Shown here: positions 1-17,574 of the stretch, in pieces
How the letters are laid out: the number at the start of each line of letters is the position of its first letter
Position numbering within the stretch: the stretch's first letter is position 1
From: a phage
Assembly (NCBI GenBank): GCA_033664045.1
Contig: GCA_033664045.1_3674.1
DNA length: 64,000 bases
Reading direction: 5' to 3' (one strand)
Notes under the pieces: model-generated
Database searches by the model: none
What the model was told of the DNA's origin: nothing
What the model saw: the letters and a program-made list of their open reading frames with translations, nothing else
Translations under genes and position numbers: made by a program

Positions 1-376
1 AAAAAAATATTTTTTCAAATGTCCGTGGCAAGATGAAGGCTATAGCCCCGCCAAGCTCTAGCAATGATGCACAATGGTTAAAGAATTTGCAAGCTAAAGA
101 TGAATTCTTGCCAAATGGTGGGTTACCTATGAAGACATCTGCCTTGGGGTGCACCTCCAAGAAGTTTGCCTGAATGCACGGTGTTGGTCCTTCAAATTCA
201 GGATCTGGTACTAAATCGTACGACAGTATCTCTGAAAATAGTTTTGAAAAAGAACCTCTTCCAGCAGAAGGCTCAACGTATGCACAATTCCCATACTTAT
301 CTTTTACTTTACCAACAAGATATTCTGCATACTCAGGGTTTGTGTAATATTTGTCGTTGGACTCTTTCTTACTCAA
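1..376 (-). CDS. N6-adenine DNA methyltransferase, gamma-class-like (partial; runs off window start)
   Basis: Manual minus-strand translation reads ...YYTNPEYAEYLVGKV...AYVEPSAGRGSF (motif I)...IGNPPFGK (motif IV NPPF) with no stop before position 1. Putative TTG start at 374-376 after GGAGG; start uncertain. Confidence 0.55.
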   Translation of the reverse strand, partial: MSKKESNDKYYTNPEYAEYLVGKVKDKYGNCAYVEPSAGRGSFSKLFSEILSYDLVPDPEFEGPTPCIQANFLEVHPKADVFIGNPPFGKNSSLACKFFNHCASLLELGGAIAFILPRTFEKIFF

Positions 377-382
377 AGTGCC

Positions 383-413
383 TCCAAAAGGAAAAGGGAG
401 GCGCAAGCCTCCC
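383..413 (-). terminator. rho-independent terminator after exonuclease gene
   Basis: GGGAGGC-gcaa-GCCTCCC stem-loop (396-413) followed on the minus strand by UUUUCCUUUU. Confidence 0.5.
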
Positions 414-421
414 TATACTTG

Positions 422-1405
422 TTAGATTATCTGAATCAGGGTGTTTTTCATCTCTTCTCGGGTACGGATGTTGTTACGATCACGAACAACAGATCCACAA
501 CCTTCGCAGCGGTATGTTTTAAATGCACTCAGCTGAGTATATGCCAAAGCTTCTTCCTCGTGAAGGTGTTCTCCACCACAGCGTGGGCAACGAACCTTTG
601 GCTCCTCGTCCTGGTAGTACAATGACATGTTTGGGTGCTGCTTAGCAAACGGGCGAGCCAGCAAATACAGTCCTTCCAGAGACAGGATATCACCAACATT
701 ATACTCCCGCATCTGCTTAAATGCCTCAAGATCACCATGGACACACTTGATCCACATTTCAAACGTGTGATCAATCAGTTTCTGTCGGGCCAGTTGGAAG
801 TATTTGCATGCATACTCCAAAGTGTTTGCATTCAAACGGAATGCCTTTTTGATCATTTTAAGGGTGTCAACATCTTTGTAGGGGCTTGTTGGAGGCAACC
901 CGTGAAATGCAAATCGTTGGTTGGCCCACCCGCAGTCAAAACCTGAATTGTGGGCTACTGCGACATCACATTTATCCAGATAATACCACAAATCCTGAAT
1001 CAATTCTAGATCATTGTGAATATCTTCATCCCACATTTTGTAATCTGGAAGAGCGCAGTCAACCACACTGGGGCTGTCTAGCCACTTACCTGCGAAAGTT
1101 AGCATATAGGGCATAACTTCAATACCACAGGTTTGAATGTTGGTCTTATAGTGCCCAAAGAACCAGCCGTTTGTTGGGGATGTCTCTGTATCATACACCC
1201 AAACTTTAGCACCTTTGTGCTCTTCAAGGAAGCGCTCCGTTGCTTCTCCTACAATCTCTGACATATTCTCTTGTGCACGTTTAAGCTGTAGTCGGATCCA
1301 GCTCTCACGTGACTCACGGCCTAAAAATTCACGAGCAATTTGTCTATTAGTGTATCCCTGTTGCTTTAGTGTTAAAATTTGCTCAAGAGTTAACTTTGTC
1401 ATCAT
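422..1405 (-). CDS. DnaQ-like (DEDD) 3'-5' exonuclease with N-terminal HTH and C-terminal Zn-ribbon
   Basis: Exo motifs VWVYDTETS, AHNSGFDCGW, YNVGDILSLEGLY; N-terminal LKQQGYTNRQIAREF HTH-like; C-terminal CPRCGG...CEGCG. Confidence 0.65.
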   Translation of the reverse strand: MMTKLTLEQILTLKQQGYTNRQIAREFLGRESRESWIRLQLKRAQENMSEIVGEATERFLEEHKGAKVWVYDTETSPTNGWFFGHYKTNIQTCGIEVMPYMLTFAGKWLDSPSVVDCALPDYKMWDEDIHNDLELIQDLWYYLDKCDVAVAHNSGFDCGWANQRFAFHGLPPTSPYKDVDTLKMIKKAFRLNANTLEYACKYFQLARQKLIDHTFEMWIKCVHGDLEAFKQMREYNVGDILSLEGLYLLARPFAKQHPNMSLYYQDEEPKVRCPRCGGEHLHEEEALAYTQLSAFKTYRCEGCGSVVRDRNNIRTREEMKNTLIQII

Positions 1406-1417
1406 CGTTAAGATTCC

Positions 1418-1639
1418 TTAGTAAAACTGAAGAATGTCTTTTAAAGCGAAGTCACGATATTCGCCCTTGTCTACATCGAAGGCACGCATCAACCACTGCT
1501 CTTCTTTATGATACTCTGTAGAGCCAAACCATAAATTAGGCTCAGTAACGCAGCGATCTGCAACAACACCTTTCCAGTTACGGTATTTCATCCTGATCAG
1601 GACTGAGTCGCAAGGATTGAATACCTTTTTCATCCCCAT
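1418..1639 (-). CDS. hypothetical protein (73 aa)
   Basis: ORF in co-directional early operon; no recognisable motif; 5' end overlaps next gene. Confidence 0.3.
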   Translation of the reverse strand: MGMKKVFNPCDSVLIRMKYRNWKGVVADRCVTEPNLWFGSTEYHKEEQWLMRAFDVDKGEYRDFALKDILQFY

Positions 1640-2183
1640 AGAAATCTCTCTCCTCAGTTTTCTTTATAAACTCCTGCATGTAGAACTCAATAGCCTCATG
1701 CTTGGTGCACTCTGGATTAATGACAAGACTGAGATCTGATTCTGCTCGTGCAATGATCGTAGCTTTAGAGCATCTCCTCAAGAACTTTGTCATATCATCT
1801 CTGTAGTTTTTGTGGAGCGGGAAGTCGCTGTAGTCTTTCTCCAGATAGTCAGCCATCCGGCGCAACGCCTCTGATAAACTGCAATCTGTATACTCGTTAC
1901 AGTATTTCATCCAGTATTTAAGCACATACCCCTCAAAGGTATTAGTGCATTGGGACAAAACACCCCTGCAACGACCAGTCAGATGATCATGATCCAAACA
2001 AGGCTTACGAAGTGGCTCGCACAAGATCGGATCAAGACCATCCTGCTCATCTGACAATTCTTTTCGAAAGTTGGCTATGTCCTTAGAATCTTTTAACCAC
2101 CCGTTATTAACGGGGGCTTTGACAGCTTTCTTTCTTATTTTACGCTTTGCGATAATCCCTCCAGATGCGCCCTGCCTATCCAA
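1578..2183 (-). CDS. recombination endonuclease VII-like (T4 gp49 family) junction resolvase
   Basis: LCEP...CLDHDHLTGRCRGVLSQCTN matches the endo VII zinc/HxDH core (T4: NHLDHDHELNGPKAGKVRGLLCNLCN). Confidence 0.7.
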   Translation of the reverse strand: MDRQGASGGIIAKRKIRKKAVKAPVNNGWLKDSKDIANFRKELSDEQDGLDPILCEPLRKPCLDHDHLTGRCRGVLSQCTNTFEGYVLKYWMKYCNEYTDCSLSEALRRMADYLEKDYSDFPLHKNYRDDMTKFLRRCSKATIIARAESDLSLVINPECTKHEAIEFYMQEFIKKTEERDFYGDEKGIQSLRLSPDQDEIP

Positions 2184-2764
2184 TAAGCATCTGCGAGATC
2201 GGCCTTACCTTGTACCAAATTGATACCATCTAGGAACCCAGGTTCAGATACTTCGCAGGCCTTAACCATCAACTTTTTATCCATTGTAACAGGTTTCTTC
2301 ACAGTATGCTCTTTACCTGTCTTTTTGTCAAGCTTTTTCTTCTCCTCAAAAGCAAGTTCTTCAGGAAGATGACTACGAGCAAACTTTTTGGCAGTTGTTG
2401 GTGTCACTGTGTGAACCTTAAACAGGCCGTCATTTTCACAATCAGCTAAAGCATCCCAAAGCATAACTTCGAGACCATAAAACAACCCAGCCAGTTCACG
2501 TGTGGCATCCCCGCGTGATCCAAAGGAAAGTCCTTCCATAACCACGGTGTCAACGCCGTGCGTGTGGATATAATATCTGACCTGTTTGCAGATCCAGTCA
2601 ATACGCTCAGCAGCTGTTGCAAAAGAAACCGTCCCTGGTTTCTTCTCTTTTGCAGATGAGCTTTGAGTTCGTAACACAACCTTATGAACAGGCTTTCCAT
2701 CGTCCCATACAACGCAAGCTGTGTGTGTCAACGACTGGTCTATGGATAATAGACGCTCTCTCAT
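2135..2764 (-). CDS. RuvC-like (RNase H fold) Holliday junction resolvase, putative
   Basis: Acidic motif order LSIDQS ... VVMEGLSFG ... ADLADAYWIGRA resembles RuvC-family catalytic residues; weaker call. Confidence 0.45.
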   Translation of the reverse strand: MRERLLSIDQSLTHTACVVWDDGKPVHKVVLRTQSSSAKEKKPGTVSFATAAERIDWICKQVRYYIHTHGVDTVVMEGLSFGSRGDATRELAGLFYGLEVMLWDALADCENDGLFKVHTVTPTTAKKFARSHLPEELAFEEKKKLDKKTGKEHTVKKPVTMDKKLMVKACEVSEPGFLDGINLVQGKADLADAYWIGRAHLEGLSQSVK

Positions 2765-3096
2765 GCTTCCTCATCCTCCGCTCCTTCATCAGGAGCATAA
2801 GCCTTATCTTTGAACAAGACGAGAGAGCAAAGCTTAACATCGGTTTCCACACTGGTGAACATGCATAACCGCTCTCCCTCAATCAGCTCACAATCCTCTT
2901 TTAAAACAGCAGACCATACACGGTCATCTGCGTAATCATCCGTGTACAGGATGTATGAAATGGTGTCATCTTCATACAACCGCCACATACCTGTGGCAAC
3001 AACGAATGTGTTTTTTGTTTTAAGTGTCCCTGTTGTATGATCATCCTCAAAAACAGCTTCCATAATTGCGTTATCTACAGCATTTTTAGTCATCAA
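2761..3096 (-). CDS. hypothetical protein (111 aa, acidic)
   Basis: ORF in operon context only. Confidence 0.35.
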   Translation of the reverse strand: MMTKNAVDNAIMEAVFEDDHTTGTLKTKNTFVVATGMWRLYEDDTISYILYTDDYADDRVWSAVLKEDCELIEGERLCMFTSVETDVKLCSLVLFKDKAYAPDEGAEDEEA

Positions 3097-4232
3097 ATTG
3101 CTCCAACATTTCTAAGAACGTTAACAAGTTTTGTTTGATCATTGAATGTTCGCTTCATATACAAACAGTCAAAAATTATACTCATCCATTGACCTACGGA
3201 AATTCTACGATCAATACCATTGAAGTCAGTATACTTAACAACACCTTTCGGGAACCACTTCTTGTACTGATCAATAATAGCCACCCACATCTCCTTTGGA
3301 GTGCTGCACTGAGACAGTAGGTAGAATGCTGAGGCATCCCCGAACTTACCCTTACCAATAAGTCCTTGATACGGCTTGATATTGTCAGCAGAGTCACCAC
3401 ACAGCATTTGGTATCCGAAGAACAGCATTCCGTAACCACCAACCTCTCCATTAGGCTTCATGAAGATGTTCCCCATACCGTTATCAATCAGCATAGGGGT
3501 TTCCCTTACAAAATCTCCCTTATCGTTTCGCATGGGATCGAACACAAGCCCCGGTAGTGTTCTTTGGTCCTTATCAATAGAGATAATAAACTTGTTGAAC
3601 TTACCTGTTTTTTGGTAGTGGTTCCAACCTTCAAATTGCTGGATAGCTAACCAGTCGTCAGCCTCGATACCGTTGATCACTTGAGCATTATACTGCTTTT
3701 GGAGATACTGTCTTGCATCTCCAAGCAGCAGTGGTCGAAGAGTATTGTTACGGTTGGCTTTGTATCTTTCCGGCATTGGAAGATCTAGTCTGAAGTTACC
3801 TGTGCCTCCCAACACCCCGATACATCGCTCTTCCGGAATACCAAGATAGTTAAGAACTGCATTAGCTTTACACTTAATTGTGTGTAAGCAGTTCTCTACA
3901 GGATCAGGGGTTTGGATATCCAAGACATCGAAATCTTCGCGTGTCCACGGAATAAACTCCTTTCCAGCCTTTTTACATGCGGCTTCACGGTTGGTATTCT
4001 CAGCTTTTAACCAACCCCCAACGGTGTTCTTCTGCCGCCCCCAGAACTCTGTTCGTGTTTTAAACACCTTCTTTCGCCCGGAGGCTTTGTGTGTTACCTC
4101 AATTGTCCTTTTTTCACAACTTGCCGCAGCTTGATATGCAACCTGGTCGAAGTCATAATAAACTATAGCGTCAGGTTCGAGAAGATCAGCAAGACAATCT
4201 ACAGATTCAATAAGTGGATATTCTCTACTCAA
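3093..4232 (-). CDS. 5'-3' exonuclease / flap endonuclease (FEN, T4 RNase H-like)
   Basis: GIEADDWLA acidic cluster, ISIDKDQ, and H3TH-like LCGDSADNIKPYQGL (compare GDxSDNIPGV of Pol I 5' exo). Confidence 0.7.
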   Translation of the reverse strand: MSREYPLIESVDCLADLLEPDAIVYYDFDQVAYQAAASCEKRTIEVTHKASGRKKVFKTRTEFWGRQKNTVGGWLKAENTNREAACKKAGKEFIPWTREDFDVLDIQTPDPVENCLHTIKCKANAVLNYLGIPEERCIGVLGGTGNFRLDLPMPERYKANRNNTLRPLLLGDARQYLQKQYNAQVINGIEADDWLAIQQFEGWNHYQKTGKFNKFIISIDKDQRTLPGLVFDPMRNDKGDFVRETPMLIDNGMGNIFMKPNGEVGGYGMLFFGYQMLCGDSADNIKPYQGLIGKGKFGDASAFYLLSQCSTPKEMWVAIIDQYKKWFPKGVVKYTDFNGIDRRISVGQWMSIIFDCLYMKRTFNDQTKLVNVLRNVGAI

Positions 4233-4533
4233 AGCCCCTCCTGTTAGTTATTCTGCAAGATGGTTGGATGCTGTAATGAAATGCATCATCACTCTCTGCA
4301 ATAAGTGACTCAACATCCCAATACTTTTCAAAAAGGAACGGATTAGACCCCCAGTGGTGGGTTATTTTCATCAAGGAGTCTGGTATCATATAACCACAGA
4401 TCTTAATTACATCACCCGGTTGAATTGTGTTTTCATGAAGGTTTTTTGCCTTCTTCAGAATCATACCTTTGTGATTCTCATTTGCATACAACTGGACGAT
4501 ATCTTTATCTTCAACAATGAAAATTTTAAGCAT
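4225..4533 (-). CDS. hypothetical protein (102 aa)
   Basis: ORF in operon context only. Confidence 0.35.
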   Translation of the reverse strand: MLKIFIVEDKDIVQLYANENHKGMILKKAKNLHENTIQPGDVIKICGYMIPDSLMKITHHWGSNPFLFEKYWDVESLIAESDDAFHYSIQPSCRITNRRGFE

Positions 4534-4592
4534 ACCTAGTTCTCCTAGTTAATAAATAGTTAACTGATAATATCAGATCAGAGACTCATTTG

Positions 4593-4886
4593 TCAAGACT
4601 TTTTAGTCTTTCTTGGAGAGCTTTTTGTTGATCTTTTTCTTTTGTGGTAAATTCCAAGTGCAGCATTTTCTTGGGCACACGTTTTAACGGTTTTTAGATC
4701 AGATCTTTCAGCTTTAGGTAGATTAAGCTCCCACCAACCCAACCAGTAAAGCTCTGATTCCGACAGCTGCTCAGATTCAGCCTTCCGATACAAGGCTTGC
4801 ATACCTCTGATGATATCGTCCAGAGGTGTATCGAATACAAAAGCTGTCTTATCGAATTTCTCTTTTACAGGTCTCTTAGCCATCAA
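4593..4886 (-). CDS. hypothetical protein (97 aa, basic C-terminus)
   Basis: ORF in operon context; lysine-rich tail. Confidence 0.35.
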   Translation of the reverse strand: MMAKRPVKEKFDKTAFVFDTPLDDIIRGMQALYRKAESEQLSESELYWLGWWELNLPKAERSDLKTVKTCAQENAALGIYHKRKRSTKSSPRKTKKS

Positions 4887-5391
4887 GGTAACCCTCTATC
4901 CACGAAAAGTCAGTCTTCCATTCTGGAACTTTACTAAGCTCACGCCACTCTGCAAAGCAGTCTCGGTAATACGCCTCTGCCATACCTTTGGTGATCTTAT
5001 TCACCTTAGCCAACTGATTAACTGCCTGAGCATACTTTCCACGGATATTTGCTAACCCAGGATGCACCGATGTGTGACAGTCTGGGCACAACGCTATCAG
5101 TCCGACAAGCCGGATCACCCCCTCCTCGAAAGTGTAAAGTTCATGACACTCCACTGGGTGTTTGCTGCCTTTACCGCCGCACACCTCACAGGTGTAGTTG
5201 GCTTCTCTATAGCACTTCTTGCGGATCTTATCCCACTCACTCTTCTTCACAGCGTTTCGTAGGTTATTATACCAAGCTGTTTCTGGGATCAGTTGCACAA
5301 TAAGCCTGCGTTCAGACTTCATTAAACGTCCGTCTTCCACGTGTTCTCCCTCATTCAAAGAAATGGGTGCGAGGGCAGGAACCTGCCTCAC
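4876..5391 (-). CDS. HNH-like zinc-binding nuclease-fold protein, putative
   Basis: CEVCGG...ECHELY...LCPDCH cysteine/histidine arrangement. Confidence 0.4.
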   Translation of the reverse strand: MRQVPALAPISLNEGEHVEDGRLMKSERRLIVQLIPETAWYNNLRNAVKKSEWDKIRKKCYREANYTCEVCGGKGSKHPVECHELYTFEEGVIRLVGLIALCPDCHTSVHPGLANIRGKYAQAVNQLAKVNKITKGMAEAYYRDCFAEWRELSKVPEWKTDFSWIEGYLDG

Positions 5392-5557
5392 CTTGTTTCA
5401 CAAGCTCGTAGAGCTCACCTTGGCTTGTCTCATAAAGGCAAATACGTTTACCATTGTCCCGATATACATCGACAAGATACGCTGTTTCACCTGCAAACAC
5501 GACACCACAGGCCAGACATGCCGCCATGAACAAAATTGCCAACAGAAAATCTTTCAT
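5351..5557 (-). CDS. small secreted/periplasmic protein (68 aa)
   Basis: N-terminal signal-peptide-like LLAILFMAACLACGVVFAGE; lies immediately downstream of endolysin. Confidence 0.4.
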   Translation of the reverse strand: MKDFLLAILFMAACLACGVVFAGETAYLVDVYRDNGKRICLYETSQGELYELVKQGEAGSCPRTHFFE

Positions 5558-5620
5558 GGTTAAACCCCCTCAAACATTTTATGAGGTGACAATACCACTT
5601 CCGTGTGGTTATGTCAATGA

Positions 5621-6091
5621 TCAATCCAGGACAACACCGCCTGCCTTTTTAAACACCTCGATCAACTTCTCAATCTTCTGTTCATGCTGACCATATCCAG
5701 CACCAGGTAACGAAGCCCAACGGGAACGGCATTTGTGGATAGCTTCGTGGATACGCCCTTCGTCAATGTCGGAGAGAGCCTTGCACTCACGGATCAGTTG
5801 CAACGCAATCTTGTCCTGACTGGCAGGGCCAAAATCTGGTAATCCTAGCTGTTTCATATAGTGTTTAGCAAACTTCTCCAAAATCTGGTAACGCCCAGCA
5901 GCGGAGGAGGTAAGTTTGGCATTTAGCTTAACGTAAACACCGGGATGCTTGCTGTAATCGCTGAACAGCTTGCCACCGACTATGACATCGTATCCCCGAT
6001 CCTTGGTAGGTTGTCTACCATTATCTGTACCTTCTGAATATGCGATCATATCCAAGAAAGCTTTTCGTTGAACGTTTTTATCAAGTTTCAT
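5621..6091 (-). CDS. endolysin, lambda R-type lytic transglycosylase
   Basis: Near-colinear similarity to lambda R as recalled: QRKAFLDMIAYSEGTDNGRQ...GYDVIVGG...AGRYQ...WASLPGAGYGQ; RBS GGAGAG 8 nt upstream. Confidence 0.9.
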   Translation of the reverse strand: MKLDKNVQRKAFLDMIAYSEGTDNGRQPTKDRGYDVIVGGKLFSDYSKHPGVYVKLNAKLTSSAAGRYQILEKFAKHYMKQLGLPDFGPASQDKIALQLIRECKALSDIDEGRIHEAIHKCRSRWASLPGAGYGQHEQKIEKLIEVFKKAGGVVLD

Positions 6092-6159
6092 TTTTCATAC
6101 TCTCCAGTTTACTCATAACTAGCCCGATCAACAACACTGCATAGTGTGGTTATGTAGGT

Positions 6160-6188
6160 GCCAATTGAAAAACCATCATTCAATTGGC
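6160..6188. promoter_or_regulatory. perfect 10-bp inverted repeat between ligase and endolysin genes
   Basis: GCCAATTGAA-n9-TTCAATTGGC; no following U-tract, so operator or RNA stem-loop is more likely than a terminator. Confidence 0.35.
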
Positions 6189-6215
6189 TACCGTTACCTA
6201 CTAAACCATCCTACA

Positions 6216-7499
6216 TCATTCCAGAACCTCCCAAGTGTCTGGGTTAACATTTCGGACGCAGATACCGACAGGGAATTGGTAGTTGTTGTCTTCTGTCCTT
6301 GCTTGGTATTTGAAGGTGACAAACTTGCCGATCATTTCCTGCATCCTGTCATAGCTACGCTCCTCGTGCGTGCCTTTCATCTTCATTTTAACAACAACAC
6401 CTTCCTTGTCAACACAGATAAGAACACCTTCATCATTCTTATCTTTCTCAACGTCAATAACTTTCACCTCTGCGTCGTTGAACTTTTTCCATTTCAATGC
6501 TTCAGATGTTCGCTGACCATACTCATACTTACCACAGAAGTTACGCATAATGGTACCTTCATATCCTTCGGACATGAATATACCAACAGATTCTTCGCAA
6601 TGATCAACTGTGTACGCAAGCTCTGCGTCAACAACCTTGATATGGTCAAGCATCAGGGTGGTAACGGTATCCTCTGCATCCATAAGATCTTTGCAGCGTC
6701 CAGACTCTGTTTCTGGATCCCACCACACCTTGTCGCTAGGAATATCAAAAATGTGATACTCCAGATCGTAGCTACAGTACCCACCGTAACGCAAATCATC
6801 ACGAACAGGCTCAACATCGACAGGAATATCTACCTTGTTGAAGTTTTTGTACGTTGATAAGCCTGCCTTAATTGCGGCATGACGGCGTTTTTTATCTGCC
6901 TCATAGTCTTTATCGATCTCGGCCTGAATCTCTTCCTGTGTGCGCCACCGTTTAGCAAGAGACACTATTTTCTGCAAAGGAAGACCATGAATGTATAGTT
7001 CCCCATCAAGTTGTTTAATCCCAGTGGTAGAATGGAAAGAACGAAGTTGCTCTAAAAGCTTTCCTTGAATAGGGTAGGACTTATTGCCACGGGAAATAAA
7101 TTTAGGCTCACCATTTTGGAAAACAACAAGCAGACGAAGGCCATCTAACTTACGCAAGATCCAGCAAGGTAATTTAAGTGCCTTGCCACGCTTCAGATAG
7201 TCATGCACCAGCATGGGTAAAAGGTCAACACCCTGCTCGCAATCTTCCATGTTTTCAACATACCCCAGACGGACTTGTTTTTCCCACTTACTGATCGCTT
7301 CCAGCTCGGCCTGTTGCTCAGCTGTAGTCTCGTTGGCACGACCTACGTTCTTAGGTGTGCATACCGTCTCTTTGTACTGCAATTTACCGTCAAGCTTGCC
7401 AAACTCTACGATAACCTTTTCGCCATCTGTAAATACTTTCCATTGCTGGTAACTTCCATCTTTATTCAGTGCGTACAGTGTTGTTTTGATCTGATGCAT
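6216..7499 (-). CDS. ATP-dependent DNA ligase
   Basis: Adenylation motif I ILRKLDGLRLL (KxDGxR) plus EGTIMR and KWKKF motifs; length suits NTase plus OB domain. Confidence 0.85.
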   Translation of the reverse strand: MHQIKTTLYALNKDGSYQQWKVFTDGEKVIVEFGKLDGKLQYKETVCTPKNVGRANETTAEQQAELEAISKWEKQVRLGYVENMEDCEQGVDLLPMLVHDYLKRGKALKLPCWILRKLDGLRLLVVFQNGEPKFISRGNKSYPIQGKLLEQLRSFHSTTGIKQLDGELYIHGLPLQKIVSLAKRWRTQEEIQAEIDKDYEADKKRRHAAIKAGLSTYKNFNKVDIPVDVEPVRDDLRYGGYCSYDLEYHIFDIPSDKVWWDPETESGRCKDLMDAEDTVTTLMLDHIKVVDAELAYTVDHCEESVGIFMSEGYEGTIMRNFCGKYEYGQRTSEALKWKKFNDAEVKVIDVEKDKNDEGVLICVDKEGVVVKMKMKGTHEERSYDRMQEMIGKFVTFKYQARTEDNNYQFPVGICVRNVNPDTWEVLE

Positions 7500-7768
7500 T
7501 ACTCGGCCTCTTCCTTAAAAATGTTAAACATCTCTTCTTTACTCATTACCAACCAGTCTCCCATAAAGTCAACTAGCCAGTCCCCCTGGTACAAGACAAG
7601 GTTACCAAACGGCTCGACAAGCTCACACATGCGACGAATATCTCTGGTCCGAACAGATGACGATGTAAACACACCTGTATCAATCCACCGTTGCAGATCA
7701 GATACTGATGAAGAGCTTCCGTCAAACTGGTGTGCTTCTACAGGTTTAGCAAGATTAAATAACGGCAT
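7499..7768 (-). CDS. hypothetical protein (89 aa)
   Basis: ORF in operon context only. Confidence 0.35.
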   Translation of the reverse strand: MPLFNLAKPVEAHQFDGSSSSVSDLQRWIDTGVFTSSSVRTRDIRRMCELVEPFGNLVLYQGDWLVDFMGDWLVMSKEEMFNIFKEEAE

Positions 7769-8084
7769 TGCAGTCCTCCTTATCTAATAGGTCTTTTATC
7801 GGGTAAACAAGCAGGTGTGGATCGTAATAATTTATAGTTTTATTCTGCCACACTATGAACTTAATTACAACTAAATTTACCACATCTTTATCTCCATGCA
7901 GTCCAACACACAGATTTGTCCATATTTTGTGGTTGAATACTTTGCTGTCGATGTAGATCTTAGTGTCAAACTTCTCCTCTATACTGCCTATGAGTTTAAC
8001 CAACTCTTTCATCTGATCCCCAAACACAGCATCGTTTTCAAGATCTCTGGAGTGCTTGTACATAACTATCTGCCTCACTTGCAT
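7755..8084 (-). CDS. hypothetical protein (109 aa)
   Basis: ORF in operon context only. Confidence 0.35.
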   Translation of the reverse strand: MQVRQIVMYKHSRDLENDAVFGDQMKELVKLIGSIEEKFDTKIYIDSKVFNHKIWTNLCVGLHGDKDVVNLVVIKFIVWQNKTINYYDPHLLVYPIKDLLDKEDCNAVI

Positions 8085-8126
8085 ACTTTCCGCAACAAGT
8101 AAAGCCGGGTAATCCCGGCTATGTTG

Positions 8127-8840
8127 TTAAATATACTCTGTTACATCCTTGAAGCTCGAAGGCTTCATGATCTTACCTTTACTGTCAAGGAATATGATAA
8201 CTTTATTACCGTTGTAGAATTCTTCCTTGGCAACAAAACCTTCATATCGACCATCAAAGCGTCGTTCAAGATCTTTAATCTCCAACTCTATGAGTTGTTC
8301 AGCAGGCATATCTGCACTGGCACCGTGTGAATACCGTAGATGGTTTACCCGTGCAAACTTGCTGTCATTCGATTTGAGAACCTTACGCATCATCCCGCAC
8401 ACATCGCCGCGAAGCTGGAACAGCAAAGCTGTTGACAACTCCGCTAAGCGGTAAGCTGACGCTCTTTGCTTGGATGTGTTTTTCGCAGCGATCAGTGTAT
8501 CATAGAACTCACCGATCTTGAACTTAAGACCTCGTGGATTATCAAACAGGTTTGACCACTTTTCGTGATTGTCATTAACAAGATAAGCTGCATAACTTGT
8601 GACAACGTGAAGATCGCAGGCCTCTTTTAGCAGGTGATCTCCACCATCACCTTTCTCCAGCTCTTCCAAAACCTCATTAAACTCTTCCTCAATGAAGCTA
8701 AGCTGTAATTCGAATGGTGTGTATGATTTTTTCACTTTAGCTGCCACACGGTTCCAGTTTTCCACCCAATTGGCAGACCAAAGGTAGTTTTCAGGCTGAG
8801 ACAGTTTTTCTAGGTTGTCGATCAGTTTAGTATTCAGCAT
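8127..8840 (-). CDS. MazG-like nucleoside triphosphate pyrophosphohydrolase, putative
   Basis: EEEFNEVLEELEKGD...LKEACDLHVV resembles the MazG ExxE...ExxD metal-binding pattern. Confidence 0.4.
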   Translation of the reverse strand: MLNTKLIDNLEKLSQPENYLWSANWVENWNRVAAKVKKSYTPFELQLSFIEEEFNEVLEELEKGDGGDHLLKEACDLHVVTSYAAYLVNDNHEKWSNLFDNPRGLKFKIGEFYDTLIAAKNTSKQRASAYRLAELSTALLFQLRGDVCGMMRKVLKSNDSKFARVNHLRYSHGASADMPAEQLIELEIKDLERRFDGRYEGFVAKEEFYNGNKVIIFLDSKGKIMKPSSFKDVTEYI

Positions 8841-14913: not shown

Positions 14914-14988
14914 GCCCTGTTAGCTTAGTGGATAAAGCAGCGGCCTTCTAAGCCGTTGACACTGGTTCGAGTCCAGTACGGGGTGCCA
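14914..14988 (+). tRNA. tRNA-Arg (anticodon TCT)
   Basis: Hand-folded cloverleaf: acceptor GCCCTGT/ACGGGGT with G-U pairs, anticodon loop CTTCTAA, T-loop TTCGAGT, encoded CCA. Ends approximate. Confidence 0.75.
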
Positions 14989-14992
14989 AATT

Positions 14993-15079
14993 GGGGAGTT
15001 ATCCCGTAGAGGTAGCGGTGTAGACTGTAAATCTATTGTCATTGCGACTCGGGTGGTTCGACTCCACCACTCCCCACCA
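14993..15079 (+). tRNA. tRNA-Tyr (anticodon GTA), class II with long variable arm
   Basis: Acceptor GGGGAGT/ACTCCCC, anticodon loop CTGTAAA, T-arm GGTTCGACTCC, encoded CCA; architecture parallels E. coli tRNA-Tyr. Confidence 0.8.
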
Positions 15080-15193
15080 AATTTATATTTTTAAATGTAT
15101 AAATCATACAGATAATGGCATTGATATTTATCGTCGTTTATACTAGTCACTAACTGCTCGAAAATCAGTGTCATTATCAGTATTGTTTATAAA

Positions 15194-15284
15194 AGAGGGT
15201 AGGGAGCAATGGTGCTCAAGCGGTCTTGAAAACCGTCCCGTTGAGGATGACTCGATGATGGTTCGATTCCATTACCCTCTGCCA
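15194..15284 (+). tRNA. tRNA-Ser (anticodon TGA), class II
   Basis: Acceptor AGAGGGT/ACCCTCT, anticodon stem-loop CGGTCTTGAAAACCG, long extra arm, T-arm GGTTCGATTCC, CCA. Confidence 0.75.
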
Positions 15285-15372
15285 TATTGTTGACCTTGTA
15301 ATTAAGCGAAAGCCGGAAGCAGAACCGGATTATCAAATGTTACAGTCGTCATCGCCGACTAGCAACATGGTC

Positions 15373-15481
15373 AACATACTGAGCTAGGTAAGCCCTTTGG
15401 CAAGGGCGAGGATTTTTAATCCTGAAAATAGACGAGGTAGTCGTTGAATACATAGGTGGTTCGATTCCACCGCCTAGCACC
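15373..15481 (+). tRNA. aberrant tRNA-like gene (about 107 nt), possible pseudo-tRNA
   Basis: Perfect acceptor GCTAGGT/GCCTAGC and T-arm GGTGGTTCGATTCCACC, but anticodon region AGGAT-TTTTA-ATCCT and a roughly 30-nt extra arm; CC but no encoded CCA. Confidence 0.35.
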
Positions 15482-15486
15482 TTTTT

Positions 15487-15562
15487 GCTGATGTAGCACA
15501 ATTGGTAATGCAATTGATTTGTAATCAATAGGTTGCAGGTTCAAGTCCTGCCATCAGCACCA
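15487..15562 (+). tRNA. tRNA-Thr (anticodon TGT)
   Basis: Acceptor GCTGATG/CATCAGC, anticodon stem-loop ATTGA-TTTGTAA-TCAAT, T-arm GCAGGTTCAAGTCCTGC, CCA. Confidence 0.8.
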
Positions 15563-15563
15563 A

Positions 15564-15638
15564 GGCCCTGTAGCTGGAAGGTTCAAGCAAGCGACTCATA
15601 ATCGCCAGACGGTGGTTCAATTCCACCCAGGGCCACCA
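15564..15638 (+). tRNA. tRNA-Met-type (anticodon CAT; elongator Met or Ile2 not resolved)
   Basis: Acceptor GGCCCTG/CAGGGCC fully paired, anticodon loop CTCATAA, T-arm GGTGGTTCAATTCCACC, CCA. Confidence 0.7.
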
Positions 15639-15649
15639 AATAATAAATA

Positions 15650-15726
15650 CTCCGCGTAGCTCAGCTTGGTAGAGCGCCTGATTTGGGATCAGGAGGTCGA
15701 GTGTTCGAATCACTCCGTGGAGACCA
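15650..15726 (+). tRNA. tRNA-Pro (anticodon TGG)
   Basis: Acceptor CTCCGCG/CGTGGAG, canonical D-arm GCTCAGCTTGGTAGAGC, anticodon stem-loop CCTGA-TTTGGGA-TCAGG, T-loop TTCGAAT, CCA. Confidence 0.85.
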
Positions 15727-16830: not shown

Positions 16831-17255
16831 TGTCTAAGATTTACGGACCGTGTTCTGAAAAGCAGAAGATGATCCTAGAAAACGATGCAGATATTTTGGT
16901 AATCGGCGGTGCCGCAGGGTCTGGCAAGTCGTTCCTCTTGCAGTTGATGCCACTTAAAATTATTGATGACCCCCACAGCTCTGTGGTTATGTTCCGAAGA
17001 ACAACCCCGCAGTTGGAAGGTGAGGGTGGACTATGGCCTAAAGCAGTAGCTATTTATAGTGATCTGCCTGAAAACATTAAGCCAAAGTTCAGAGAGAAGG
17101 ATCATAAGTTCATTTTTCCACGGTTTGATCCGAACACTGGTAAGTGGGATAGAAGCAAAAAGGGAGCTGTTGTAAAATACTGCCACATGGAGTATGTACA
17201 AGATAAGCTTAACCATCAGGGGCTTGAGTACACCATGGTTTGCTTCGATGAGGGT
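16830..17255 (+). CDS. terminase large subunit, exon 1 (ATPase N-terminus)
   Basis: Walker A LVIGGAAGSGKSF and Walker B MVCFDEG; frame stops at TAA 17256-17258, exactly where the intron begins. Confidence 0.8.
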
Positions 17256-17574
17256 TAATTTGTAGCTCTCGTAAAACCTCCCTAATTGCGGGGAAATCTT
17301 TATTATTGACACCACCAACCTGTTATGGTAACATAATAGAGGCTTCGAAGAGAGATCGAAGGTATGGTAACAGTGTGTTAATTTAGATAATCCGCAGCGA
17401 AGCATCCGATAGGATGAACGTTCAACGACTAGTCGAGAGACGTAGAATCAAGCGATTCGAAACGGGAGGGTAAGCGGTTGTTGTCGCTTATAAGATATAG
17501 TCTGGTCTGCATGGAGACATGCAGCTGCCTGAAAATGGCGGGGCAAGACTAGCGACCTTGCCTGAACATAAACG
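17256..17574 (+). mobile_element. group I self-splicing intron (no ORF)
   Basis: Core elements P AATTGCGGGGAAA (17284-17296), Q AATCCGCAGC (17389-17398), R GTTCAACGACTAGTC (17420-17434), S AAGATATAGTCT (17492-17503); P1 exon GAGGGU (17250-17255) pairs with GCUCUC (17265-17270) including U.G at splice site; ends with G17574. Confidence 0.75.

Follow-up and report, generated by a model that had tools for sequence, protein, structure and literature searches.

The 64,000-nucleotide stretch of phage DNA analyzed here (NCBI GenBank assembly GCA_033664045.1, contig GCA_033664045.1_3674.1; hereafter, the window) carries, at positions 422 to 4232, a block of genes for four DNA-processing enzymes, i.e., a FEN-type 5'-3' exonuclease, a RuvC-like candidate Holliday-junction resolvase, an endonuclease VII (EndoVII) and a 3'-5' exonuclease joined to an N-terminal helix-turn-helix (HTH) and a C-terminal zinc ribbon. 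The open reading frames (ORFs) named in an initial annotation were all recovered on the minus strand, with the coordinates and in the families proposed there, and the assignments of the four nucleases held when examined by hidden Markov model (HMM) and profile searches and by fold evidence. All named ORFs are long and conserved down to 30-50% amino-acid identity across many phages, so that the nuclease ORFs can not be regarded as chance open frames. The first 8 kb of the window matches, end to end, more than 100 records of phages at 96.7-97.7% identity; nearly all of these are from Vequintavirus (rV5-like E. coli myophages), and annotated records such as those for phages MaxTheCat and navn carry the genes of this region in an unchanged order. 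On the strength of this nucleotide identity, the window is assigned to Vequintavirus, and the region is a well-sampled part of this known phage genus. The block corresponds to the core operon for DNA metabolism that is conserved in a well-known subfamily of phages and is partly common to phiKMV-like phages, and most of its genes already bear names in GenBank or PHROGs.

From the DNA ligase to the methyltransferase, every gene is encoded on the minus strand and overlaps or adjoins its neighbor, with a transcription order of ligase, lysozyme, a 68-amino-acid ORF, HNH endonuclease, orf97, orf102, FEN-type nuclease, orf111, RuvC-like protein, EndoVII, orf73, exonuclease and methyltransferase. Within this series, the seven genes from orf102 to the exonuclease (i.e., orf102, FEN, orf111, RuvC-like, EndoVII, the putative WYL mini-protein gene orf73 and the gene for the HTH-DEDDy-exonuclease-zinc-ribbon protein) form a tight array bracketed by a promoter-like site and a terminator-like hairpin. 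The sigma-70-like promoter candidate (4567-4596, minus strand) lies upstream of orf102, the first gene of the array, and consists of TTGACA and TATTAT separated by 18 nucleotides, with a TG, giving 11 of 12 consensus matches. The hairpin, which resembles an intrinsic terminator (395-414, minus strand), lies 8 nucleotides past the stop codon of the exonuclease gene and has an 8 bp stem with six G-C pairs followed by a T-rich tail. Given the overlapping or adjoining genes, all of the same strand, and the two bracketing sites, the array is probably one tightly packed, co-transcribed operon. The number of promoters in the region was not above shuffled expectation, and a scan of positions 1-8200 for repeats and RNA families found nothing notable.

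The FEN-type 5'-3' exonuclease or flap endonuclease (3093-4232; 379 amino acids) matched phrog_107, an exonuclease family, with an E value of 4.6e-71. The protein itself had no match in Pfam or NCBIfam, including the curated models PF02739 and PF01367, and a single-sequence search of the PDB was likewise fruitless; homologues at 30-36% identity do carry PF02739 and PF01367. A family profile built from 27 sequences matched PDB entry 9l56, a 5'-3' exonuclease (1.7e-6), as well as the structures of Taq 5' nuclease, T5 exonuclease and ExoIX. Nine acidic residues (D27, D29, E190, D192, D193, D220, D222, D280 and D283) were invariant among the 27 homologues, and the invariant motifs E-x-D-D, D-K-D and D-x-x-D, which are predicted to bind two metal ions, align with the same motifs of 9l56. 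These alignments place the protein in the superfamily of T5 D15, T4 RNase H and the Pol I 5' nuclease. The metal-binding motifs are common to the window protein and to T5 D15, T4 RNase H, T7 gp6 and the Pol I 5' nuclease, but the window protein is too divergent from other superfamily members to be recognized by Pfam or NCBIfam; compared to T5 exonuclease, it is also approx. 90 residues longer, with an insertion that follows the first acidic cluster and precedes the F-R..Y-K-x-x-R motif.

For the RuvC-like candidate (2135-2764; 209 amino acids), which matched phrog_159, a family labeled as RuvC-like (3.3e-39), sequence searches alone were less informative. No match was found to Pfam (PF02075) or NCBIfam models, a single-sequence PDB search returned noise, and the family profile searched against PDB sequences reached RuvC at an E value of 0.45 only, while two short distant homologues (P0030 and P0032) carry the Pfam RuvC family PF02075. 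As the sequence profile fell short, the assignment was settled by a Foldseek search with an AlphaFold2 model (pLDDT 92). The 13 best PDB matches of this model were all RuvC proteins, from Thermus, Deinococcus, Pseudomonas, phage bIL67 and E. coli, with E values from 6.6e-8 to 1e-4 and TM-scores, normalized to the target, of 0.70-0.78 (best match 4ld0; E = 6.6e-8, TM-score 0.74, also normalized to the target). According to the predicted structure, the protein thus has the RNase-H-like fold of RuvC. Moreover, E77, D189 and D192 were invariant in 25 homologues, at least 90% of which also have D9; in the alignment with Deinococcus RuvC, D9 and E77 fall on catalytic positions. The catalytic tetrad D9/E77/D189/D192, the absence of which would have argued against the RuvC-like identity initially proposed, is thus retained, in agreement with the D/E/D/D tetrad of E. 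coli RuvC (D7, E66, D138 and D141), and the C-terminal motif (D-L-A-D-A) conforms to the D-x-x-D-A of RuvC enzymes. Like the phage and poxvirus enzymes bIL67 RuvC and A22, the window protein has no RuvAB partner. Unlike RuvC resolvases, it includes a basic insertion of approx. 30 residues (~131-162), predicted to form a beta-hairpin, and co-exists with EndoVII; the insertion is missing from the short homologues and, judged from the alignment, is lineage-specific.

EndoVII (1578-2183; 201 amino acids) is of the T4 gp49 type and matched the Pfam family Endonuclease_7 (PF02945) with an E value of 2.1e-7 and a score of 31.2 bits, as compared to a curated cutoff of 23.6. Residues 59-167 aligned with residues 35-147 of the T4 endonuclease VII structure 1e7d (2.5e-4), beginning at the H-L-D-H-D-H motif and extending across the C-terminal helices, and the protein also matched gp49 of phages RB69 and KVP40. 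D64, H65, H67 and N81, which correspond to T4 D40, H41, H43 and N62, were invariant in 20 orthologues, and E84, the equivalent of T4 E65, is present in the window protein and in most orthologues. The alignment also spans T4 residues 85-147, within which Y-L of the "TYLKSDY" helix is invariant. The sequence match to T4 gp49 spans both the beta-beta-alpha-metal catalytic motif and the C-terminal helical part, which would correspond to the dimerization domain of the T4 enzyme. In T4 EndoVII, a structural zinc is held by four cysteines (C23, C26, C58 and C61). The window protein, in contrast to T4 gp49, does not have these zinc cysteines and carries approx. 30 additional basic N-terminal residues; opposite T4 C58 and C61, the alignment has S77 and T80, and none of the cysteines is invariant among the 20 rV5-like orthologues. 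The EndoVII at one other locus (L025) retains both CxxC pairs, and that of phage phiNV3 retains the first CxxC pair and one cysteine of the second. These alignments suggest that the structural zinc site was apparently lost in the rV5-like EndoVII lineage. We also considered a frameshift fusion between EndoVII and orf73, the genes of which overlap by 62 nucleotides, and rejected it, as orthologous loci do not share this overlap.

The last gene of the array (422-1405; 327 amino acids) encodes the three-domain 3'-5' exonuclease, which matched phrog_403 over its full length (1.7e-110). The N-terminal HTH (residues ~5-45, positions 1271-1393, with helices at residues 7-15, 20-28 and 31-62) is followed by a DEDDy exonuclease domain with invariant acidic and Tyr residues (residues ~66-255, positions 641-1210) and by a C-terminal Cys4 zinc ribbon with invariant cysteines (residues ~268-312, positions 470-604), which includes a three-stranded beta element at residues 281-312; all three are encoded on the minus strand. 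Among 42 homologues, D72, E74, H152, D157, Y235 and D239 were invariant, as were C273, C276, C300 and C303, and the arrangement Y235-x3-D239 identifies the enzyme, at the level of sequence motifs, as a DEDDy subtype. The family profile matched DNA polymerase III epsilon (1.3e-6) over the region from Exo II to Exo III, and also reached PolC, Cas2-DEDDh, archaeal PolB and the Sleeping Beauty PAI HTH (0.03). The best PDB folds for the AlphaFold2 model (pLDDT 92) were the exonuclease domains of family-B polymerases, and the closest viral model was a YprB-like protein of the phiKMV-like phage LKA1 (1.7e-29). Among the 42 homologues, Pfam families included PF13482 (36 proteins), RNase_T (28) and two PolB-exo families (13 and 10), with HTH_23, HTH_38 and HTH_SB detected in 9, 5 and 2 proteins, respectively. 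The window protein itself did not match PF13482 at an E value of 0.1; its HTH_38 match was weak (0.034), and the matches to several zinc-ribbon Pfam families were all below threshold.

The description of this exonuclease as DnaQ-like was borne out in that the DEDD residues are kept, but the protein is nearer to the PolB exonuclease and YprB-RNase_H_2 families than to epsilon or DnaQ proper, and NCBIfam epsilon models scored 26 bits against a cutoff of 196. While the DEDD superfamily is common to both, epsilon is a DEDDh enzyme without HTH and without zinc ribbon, whereas the window protein is a DEDDy enzyme that has both. By comparison, phage exonucleases of the YprB/RNase_H_2 (PF13482) and PolB-exo-like (PF10108) types have the same core of exonuclease and Cys4 ribbon; named relatives include phrog_403, the LKA1 protein, phiNV3 gp23, ICP1 gp189 and mycobacteriophage "DnaQ-like" proteins. 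We found 3,452 representative clusters of the family at 50% identity (E values up to 1e-3), most of them approx. 250-330 amino acids long and spanning exonuclease and ribbon, and 1,536 phage records contain a member, among them 557 mycobacteriophages as well as phiKMV-like Pseudomonas phages and ICP1. Many phrog_403-type members have no N-terminal HTH or have other N-termini. The fusion of HTH, exonuclease and zinc ribbon that had drawn attention to this locus is therefore present, but it is not a local novelty; it belongs to a large phage family (phrog_403) in which the HTH is frequent but optional.

The conservation of the block was assessed by scanning IMG/VR with the RuvC-like profile, after which HMMs of the four proteins were run against the recovered loci. 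In 22 of the 37 loci, the order FEN, RuvC, EndoVII, exonuclease was kept, on contigs of 115-150 kb and with amino-acid identities down to approx. 30-45%, and more distant loci keep FEN and RuvC only, or RuvC alone. In six loci (L015, L026, L027 and L036-L038), a FEN-type gene lies 1-2 kb upstream of the RuvC-like gene, and EndoVII is absent from the vicinity; the phages concerned are only distantly related to rV5. The linkage of FEN and RuvC may be older than the full cassette. In the phiKMV-like podophage phiNV3, the polymerase gene is followed by a hypothetical gene and then by FEN, EndoVII and exonuclease, without RuvC, and ICP1 has FEN (gp176 being the FEN homologue) and exonuclease with neither resolvase nearby; gp177, which adjoins gp176, was considered as a RuvC-like candidate and rejected on test. 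In jumbo phages, EndoVII and RuvC show a "nearly complementary pattern" (PMC7824862) and, given this distribution, the initial remark that two resolvase families are unusual together is a fair one. Hundreds of public genomes already contain these genes, for the most part with an annotation, and their novelty is low.

Three small proteins are interspersed with, or precede, the nucleases. The first gene of the array, orf102 (4225-4533; phrog_14449), was found in L005 only, i.e., it is restricted to close Vequintavirus relatives, and the "transposase" label of phrog_14449 has no other support. Between the FEN and RuvC-like genes lies orf111 (2761-3096; phrog_7583), which has no Pfam match and is present in approx. 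12 related loci. A putative stand-alone WYL-domain (Sm/SH3-like) mini-protein of 73 amino acids is encoded by orf73, between EndoVII and the exonuclease (1418-1639; phrog_3715); it occurs in at least 17 loci and is conserved in all full loci. While 9 of 10 orf73 orthologues matched the Pfam family WYL (PF13280; best E value 1.4e-5), the window protein was sub-threshold (0.029), and the orf73 profile searched against PDB sequences returned noise only. The gene is annotated as "hypothetical" everywhere despite its location in a nuclease operon.

Upstream of FEN, an HNH endonuclease gene (4876-5391) matched phrog_5200 (3.5e-72), and orthologues with 40-58% identity occupy the same position in approx. 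18 divergent loci. The gene behaves as a core gene rather than as a sporadic homing endonuclease, and it is likely to represent a fifth nuclease of the cassette. With regard to the ligase and methyltransferase, which had been described as flanking the block, the former was confirmed as an ATP-dependent DNA ligase (6216-7499; PF01068 and PF14743; phrog_114, 2.8e-83), but it is located 2 kb away with five genes between, and the latter is only a fragment at the window edge (1-376), where 125 codons for the N-terminus of an N6-adenine DNA methyltransferase (named after the annotation in MaxTheCat) are included and the rest of the gene lies beyond. The full-length orthologue matched phrog_799, DNA methyltransferase (3.3e-13), whereas the fragment itself showed only a weak match to Eco57I methylase. 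The lysozyme gene (5621-6091), the product of which had no Pfam match at an E value of 0.01, presumably encodes an enzyme resembling that of the lambda R type. This lysozyme is only 52% identical to its counterpart in the closest IMG/VR relative (L005), as compared to 87-98% for the flanking genes, which suggests a swapped, mosaic endolysin inside a DNA-metabolism block. Downstream of the operon, and on the same strand, are genes for the methyltransferase, a deoxynucleoside monophosphate (dNMP) kinase, thymidylate synthase and ribonucleotide reductases of classes I and III. A neighboring "P-loop NTPase" was considered as a Sak4/RecA-type recombinase, with which the block would have made up a full recombination module; this was rejected, as the protein was identified as the dNMP kinase.

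We hypothesize that these genes represent one operon of enzymes that process structures in the phage's own DNA, maturing and debranching replicating DNA ahead of headful packaging, and assign this explanation a probability of about 0.72. The mechanism that we propose is inferred from the protein families. The FEN-type nuclease would strip RNA primers and 5' flaps of Okazaki fragments, and the nearby ligase would seal the nicks. The phage genome, proposed to be circularly permuted and headful-packaged, would replicate via recombination-dependent branched concatemers, in which EndoVII and a dimer of the RuvC-like protein would cleave four-way junctions and other branched ones, leaving linear DNA for the terminase to package. 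The DEDDy exonuclease may trim 3' ends, 3' flaps or mismatched termini left by the other nucleases, with its HTH and zinc ribbon acting as putative DNA- or partner-binding modules, and the small WYL protein may serve as an accessory that binds single-stranded DNA. The link to packaging is drawn from the related Certrevirus CB7, which is circularly permuted like T4, and from the role of T4 EndoVII in clearing branched DNA for packaging, which is cited by the authors of the CB7 study (PMC7344957).

Several observations weigh against this hypothesis. No phage recombinase was found adjoining the nuclease block, and the promoter and terminator were recognized by consensus match alone. As the zinc ligands are lost, the stability and activity of this EndoVII cannot be assumed. 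The hypothesis also gives no reason for the retention of two resolvases. Finally, no functional study of these rV5-group proteins was found in the literature searched, and the rV5 genome paper (PMC3606486) is silent on them.

The presence of two resolvases could possibly be explained if only one of them resolves Holliday junctions and the other has been re-purposed, e.g., if the zinc-less EndoVII acted on mismatches or heteroduplex loops or as a packaging-coupled debrancher, or if the RuvC-like protein, with its basic hairpin, acted together with the adjacent FEN on forks or flaps. We regard this explanation as tentative. Given the complementarity observed in jumbo phages (PMC7824862), stable co-retention suggests non-overlapping roles; the loss of the T4 zinc ligands in the EndoVII lineage, the FEN-linked RuvC-like genes without nearby EndoVII in the six distant loci and the mismatch-repair and packaging roles of T4 EndoVII (cited in PMC7344957) all point in the same direction. 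Both proteins, on the other hand, retain complete catalytic motifs typical of junction resolvases, and phage resolvases are generally promiscuous, as described in PMC3864405, so that their roles may overlap. A more elaborate proposal, which we consider rather doubtful in its full form, is a division of labor between a zinc-less EndoVII and a FEN-tied, hairpin-bearing RuvC-like enzyme, with the WYL mini-protein and the HTH-tethered exonuclease as partners that sense single-stranded DNA and trim ends. The loss of the zinc site, the hairpin insertion in the RuvC-like protein and the distant linkage of FEN and RuvC, all read from alignments and gene order, would fit some such division of labor. 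If true, the operon would encode a coordinated "branched-DNA clearing machine" with a substrate specialization not described for any phage.

It is also conceivable, if unlikely, that the nucleases mainly degrade the host chromosome and thereby feed phage DNA synthesis, as do T7 gp3 (endonuclease I) and gp6 (exonuclease) and T4 DexA; such a role would be compatible with the maturation and debranching of phage DNA proposed above. The nucleotide-metabolism genes directly downstream, on the same strand, are consistent with this possibility, as is the trio of FEN, EndoVII and exonuclease in the phiKMV-like phage (Autographiviridae), which occupies the position of the host-DNA-degrading nucleases in the established T7 gene order. 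FEN, RuvC and EndoVII are, however, structure-specific rather than bulk nucleases, and the exonuclease family is also found in temperate mycobacteriophages, which should not demolish their host.

The initial annotation further suggested a DNA-targeted or regulated role of the exonuclease in proofreading or degradation, and the phrog_403 and RefSeq name, "DNA polymerase exonuclease subunit", would imply that the 327-amino-acid protein proofreads in trans as a subunit of the phage's DNA polymerase. In addition to this name, the similarity of the protein to phrog_17, a polymerase family, in the exonuclease portion of the latter (5e-9) and its nearest folds, the exonuclease domains of family-B polymerases, would favor such a role. 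The phage polymerase is encoded beyond the window; it belongs to family A and is T7-like (see also the rV5 genome paper, PMC3606486). This polymerase nevertheless keeps its own exonuclease acidic residues, i.e., D-x-E of Exo I, N..D of Exo II and the Asp of Exo III. The D-x-E, H-N..Y-D and E-D motifs in its N-terminus were invariant in 4 orthologues down to 62% identity, a weak test with four sequences, and the canonical Exo III tyrosine is not evident (R-V-F-E-D as compared to Y-N-V-Q-D in T7). In MaxTheCat, approx. 50 kb separate the exonuclease gene from that of the polymerase, and the two are on opposite strands. Moreover, in the temperate mycobacteriophage Mozy, the exonuclease homologue is located beside the lysis genes and no polymerase is annotated in the non-structural arm. 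Overall, the residues kept by the polymerase and the homologue in Mozy make a proofreading role improbable. The MaxTheCat polymerase (L004 23371-26424) is annotated as a join of two pieces, with ORFs of 809 and 118 amino acids. A last explanation, i.e., that the nucleases are selfish homing elements or anti-defense weapons rather than core DNA-metabolism genes, might be suggested by the nearby HNH gene and by the "transposase-like" label of orf102 in some records, but is hardly credible, as position and order are kept across dozens of divergent phages, unlike those of patchy homing genes, and no PADLOC or other defense evidence was encountered, although no search was directed at it.

Elsewhere in the window, a group I intron (17246-17524, plus strand; Rfam RF00028, 84 bits) probably corresponds to the interrupted terminase gene of the rV5 genome paper, and five tRNA genes (Rfam RF00005), one of them marginal at 29.9 bits, are located at 14914-15723 on the plus strand. 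Separately, 20 unannotated "Campylobacter phage" records (MG065646, MG065647, MG065654 and others) are approx. 97% identical to E. coli rV5-like phages in the region studied here; probably, the host was mislabeled or a coliphage had contaminated the preparations.

Overall, the cluster is largely ordinary for rV5-like E. coli phages; it is mildly unusual in that two junction-cutting enzymes are encoded side by side, in that the EndoVII lineage is without the T4 zinc ligands and in that a putative stand-alone WYL-domain gene is part of the operon. The practical value of these results lies mainly in annotation, as the RuvC-like gene is labeled "hypothetical" or "RNaseH" in most GenBank records of rV5-like phages, and the polymerase-subunit name given to the exonuclease in records is not supported by the evidence presented here. 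The exonuclease-zinc-ribbon family is very widespread in phages, and no functional study of any member, the phiKMV-like exonucleases and ICP1 gp189 included, was found in the literature searched; a second point is that EndoVII and RuvC are stably retained together, against the complementary distribution that is usual for them. While neither point alters the current understanding of phage DNA metabolism, the co-retention of the two enzymes provides a natural system for asking why a virus needs two resolvases.

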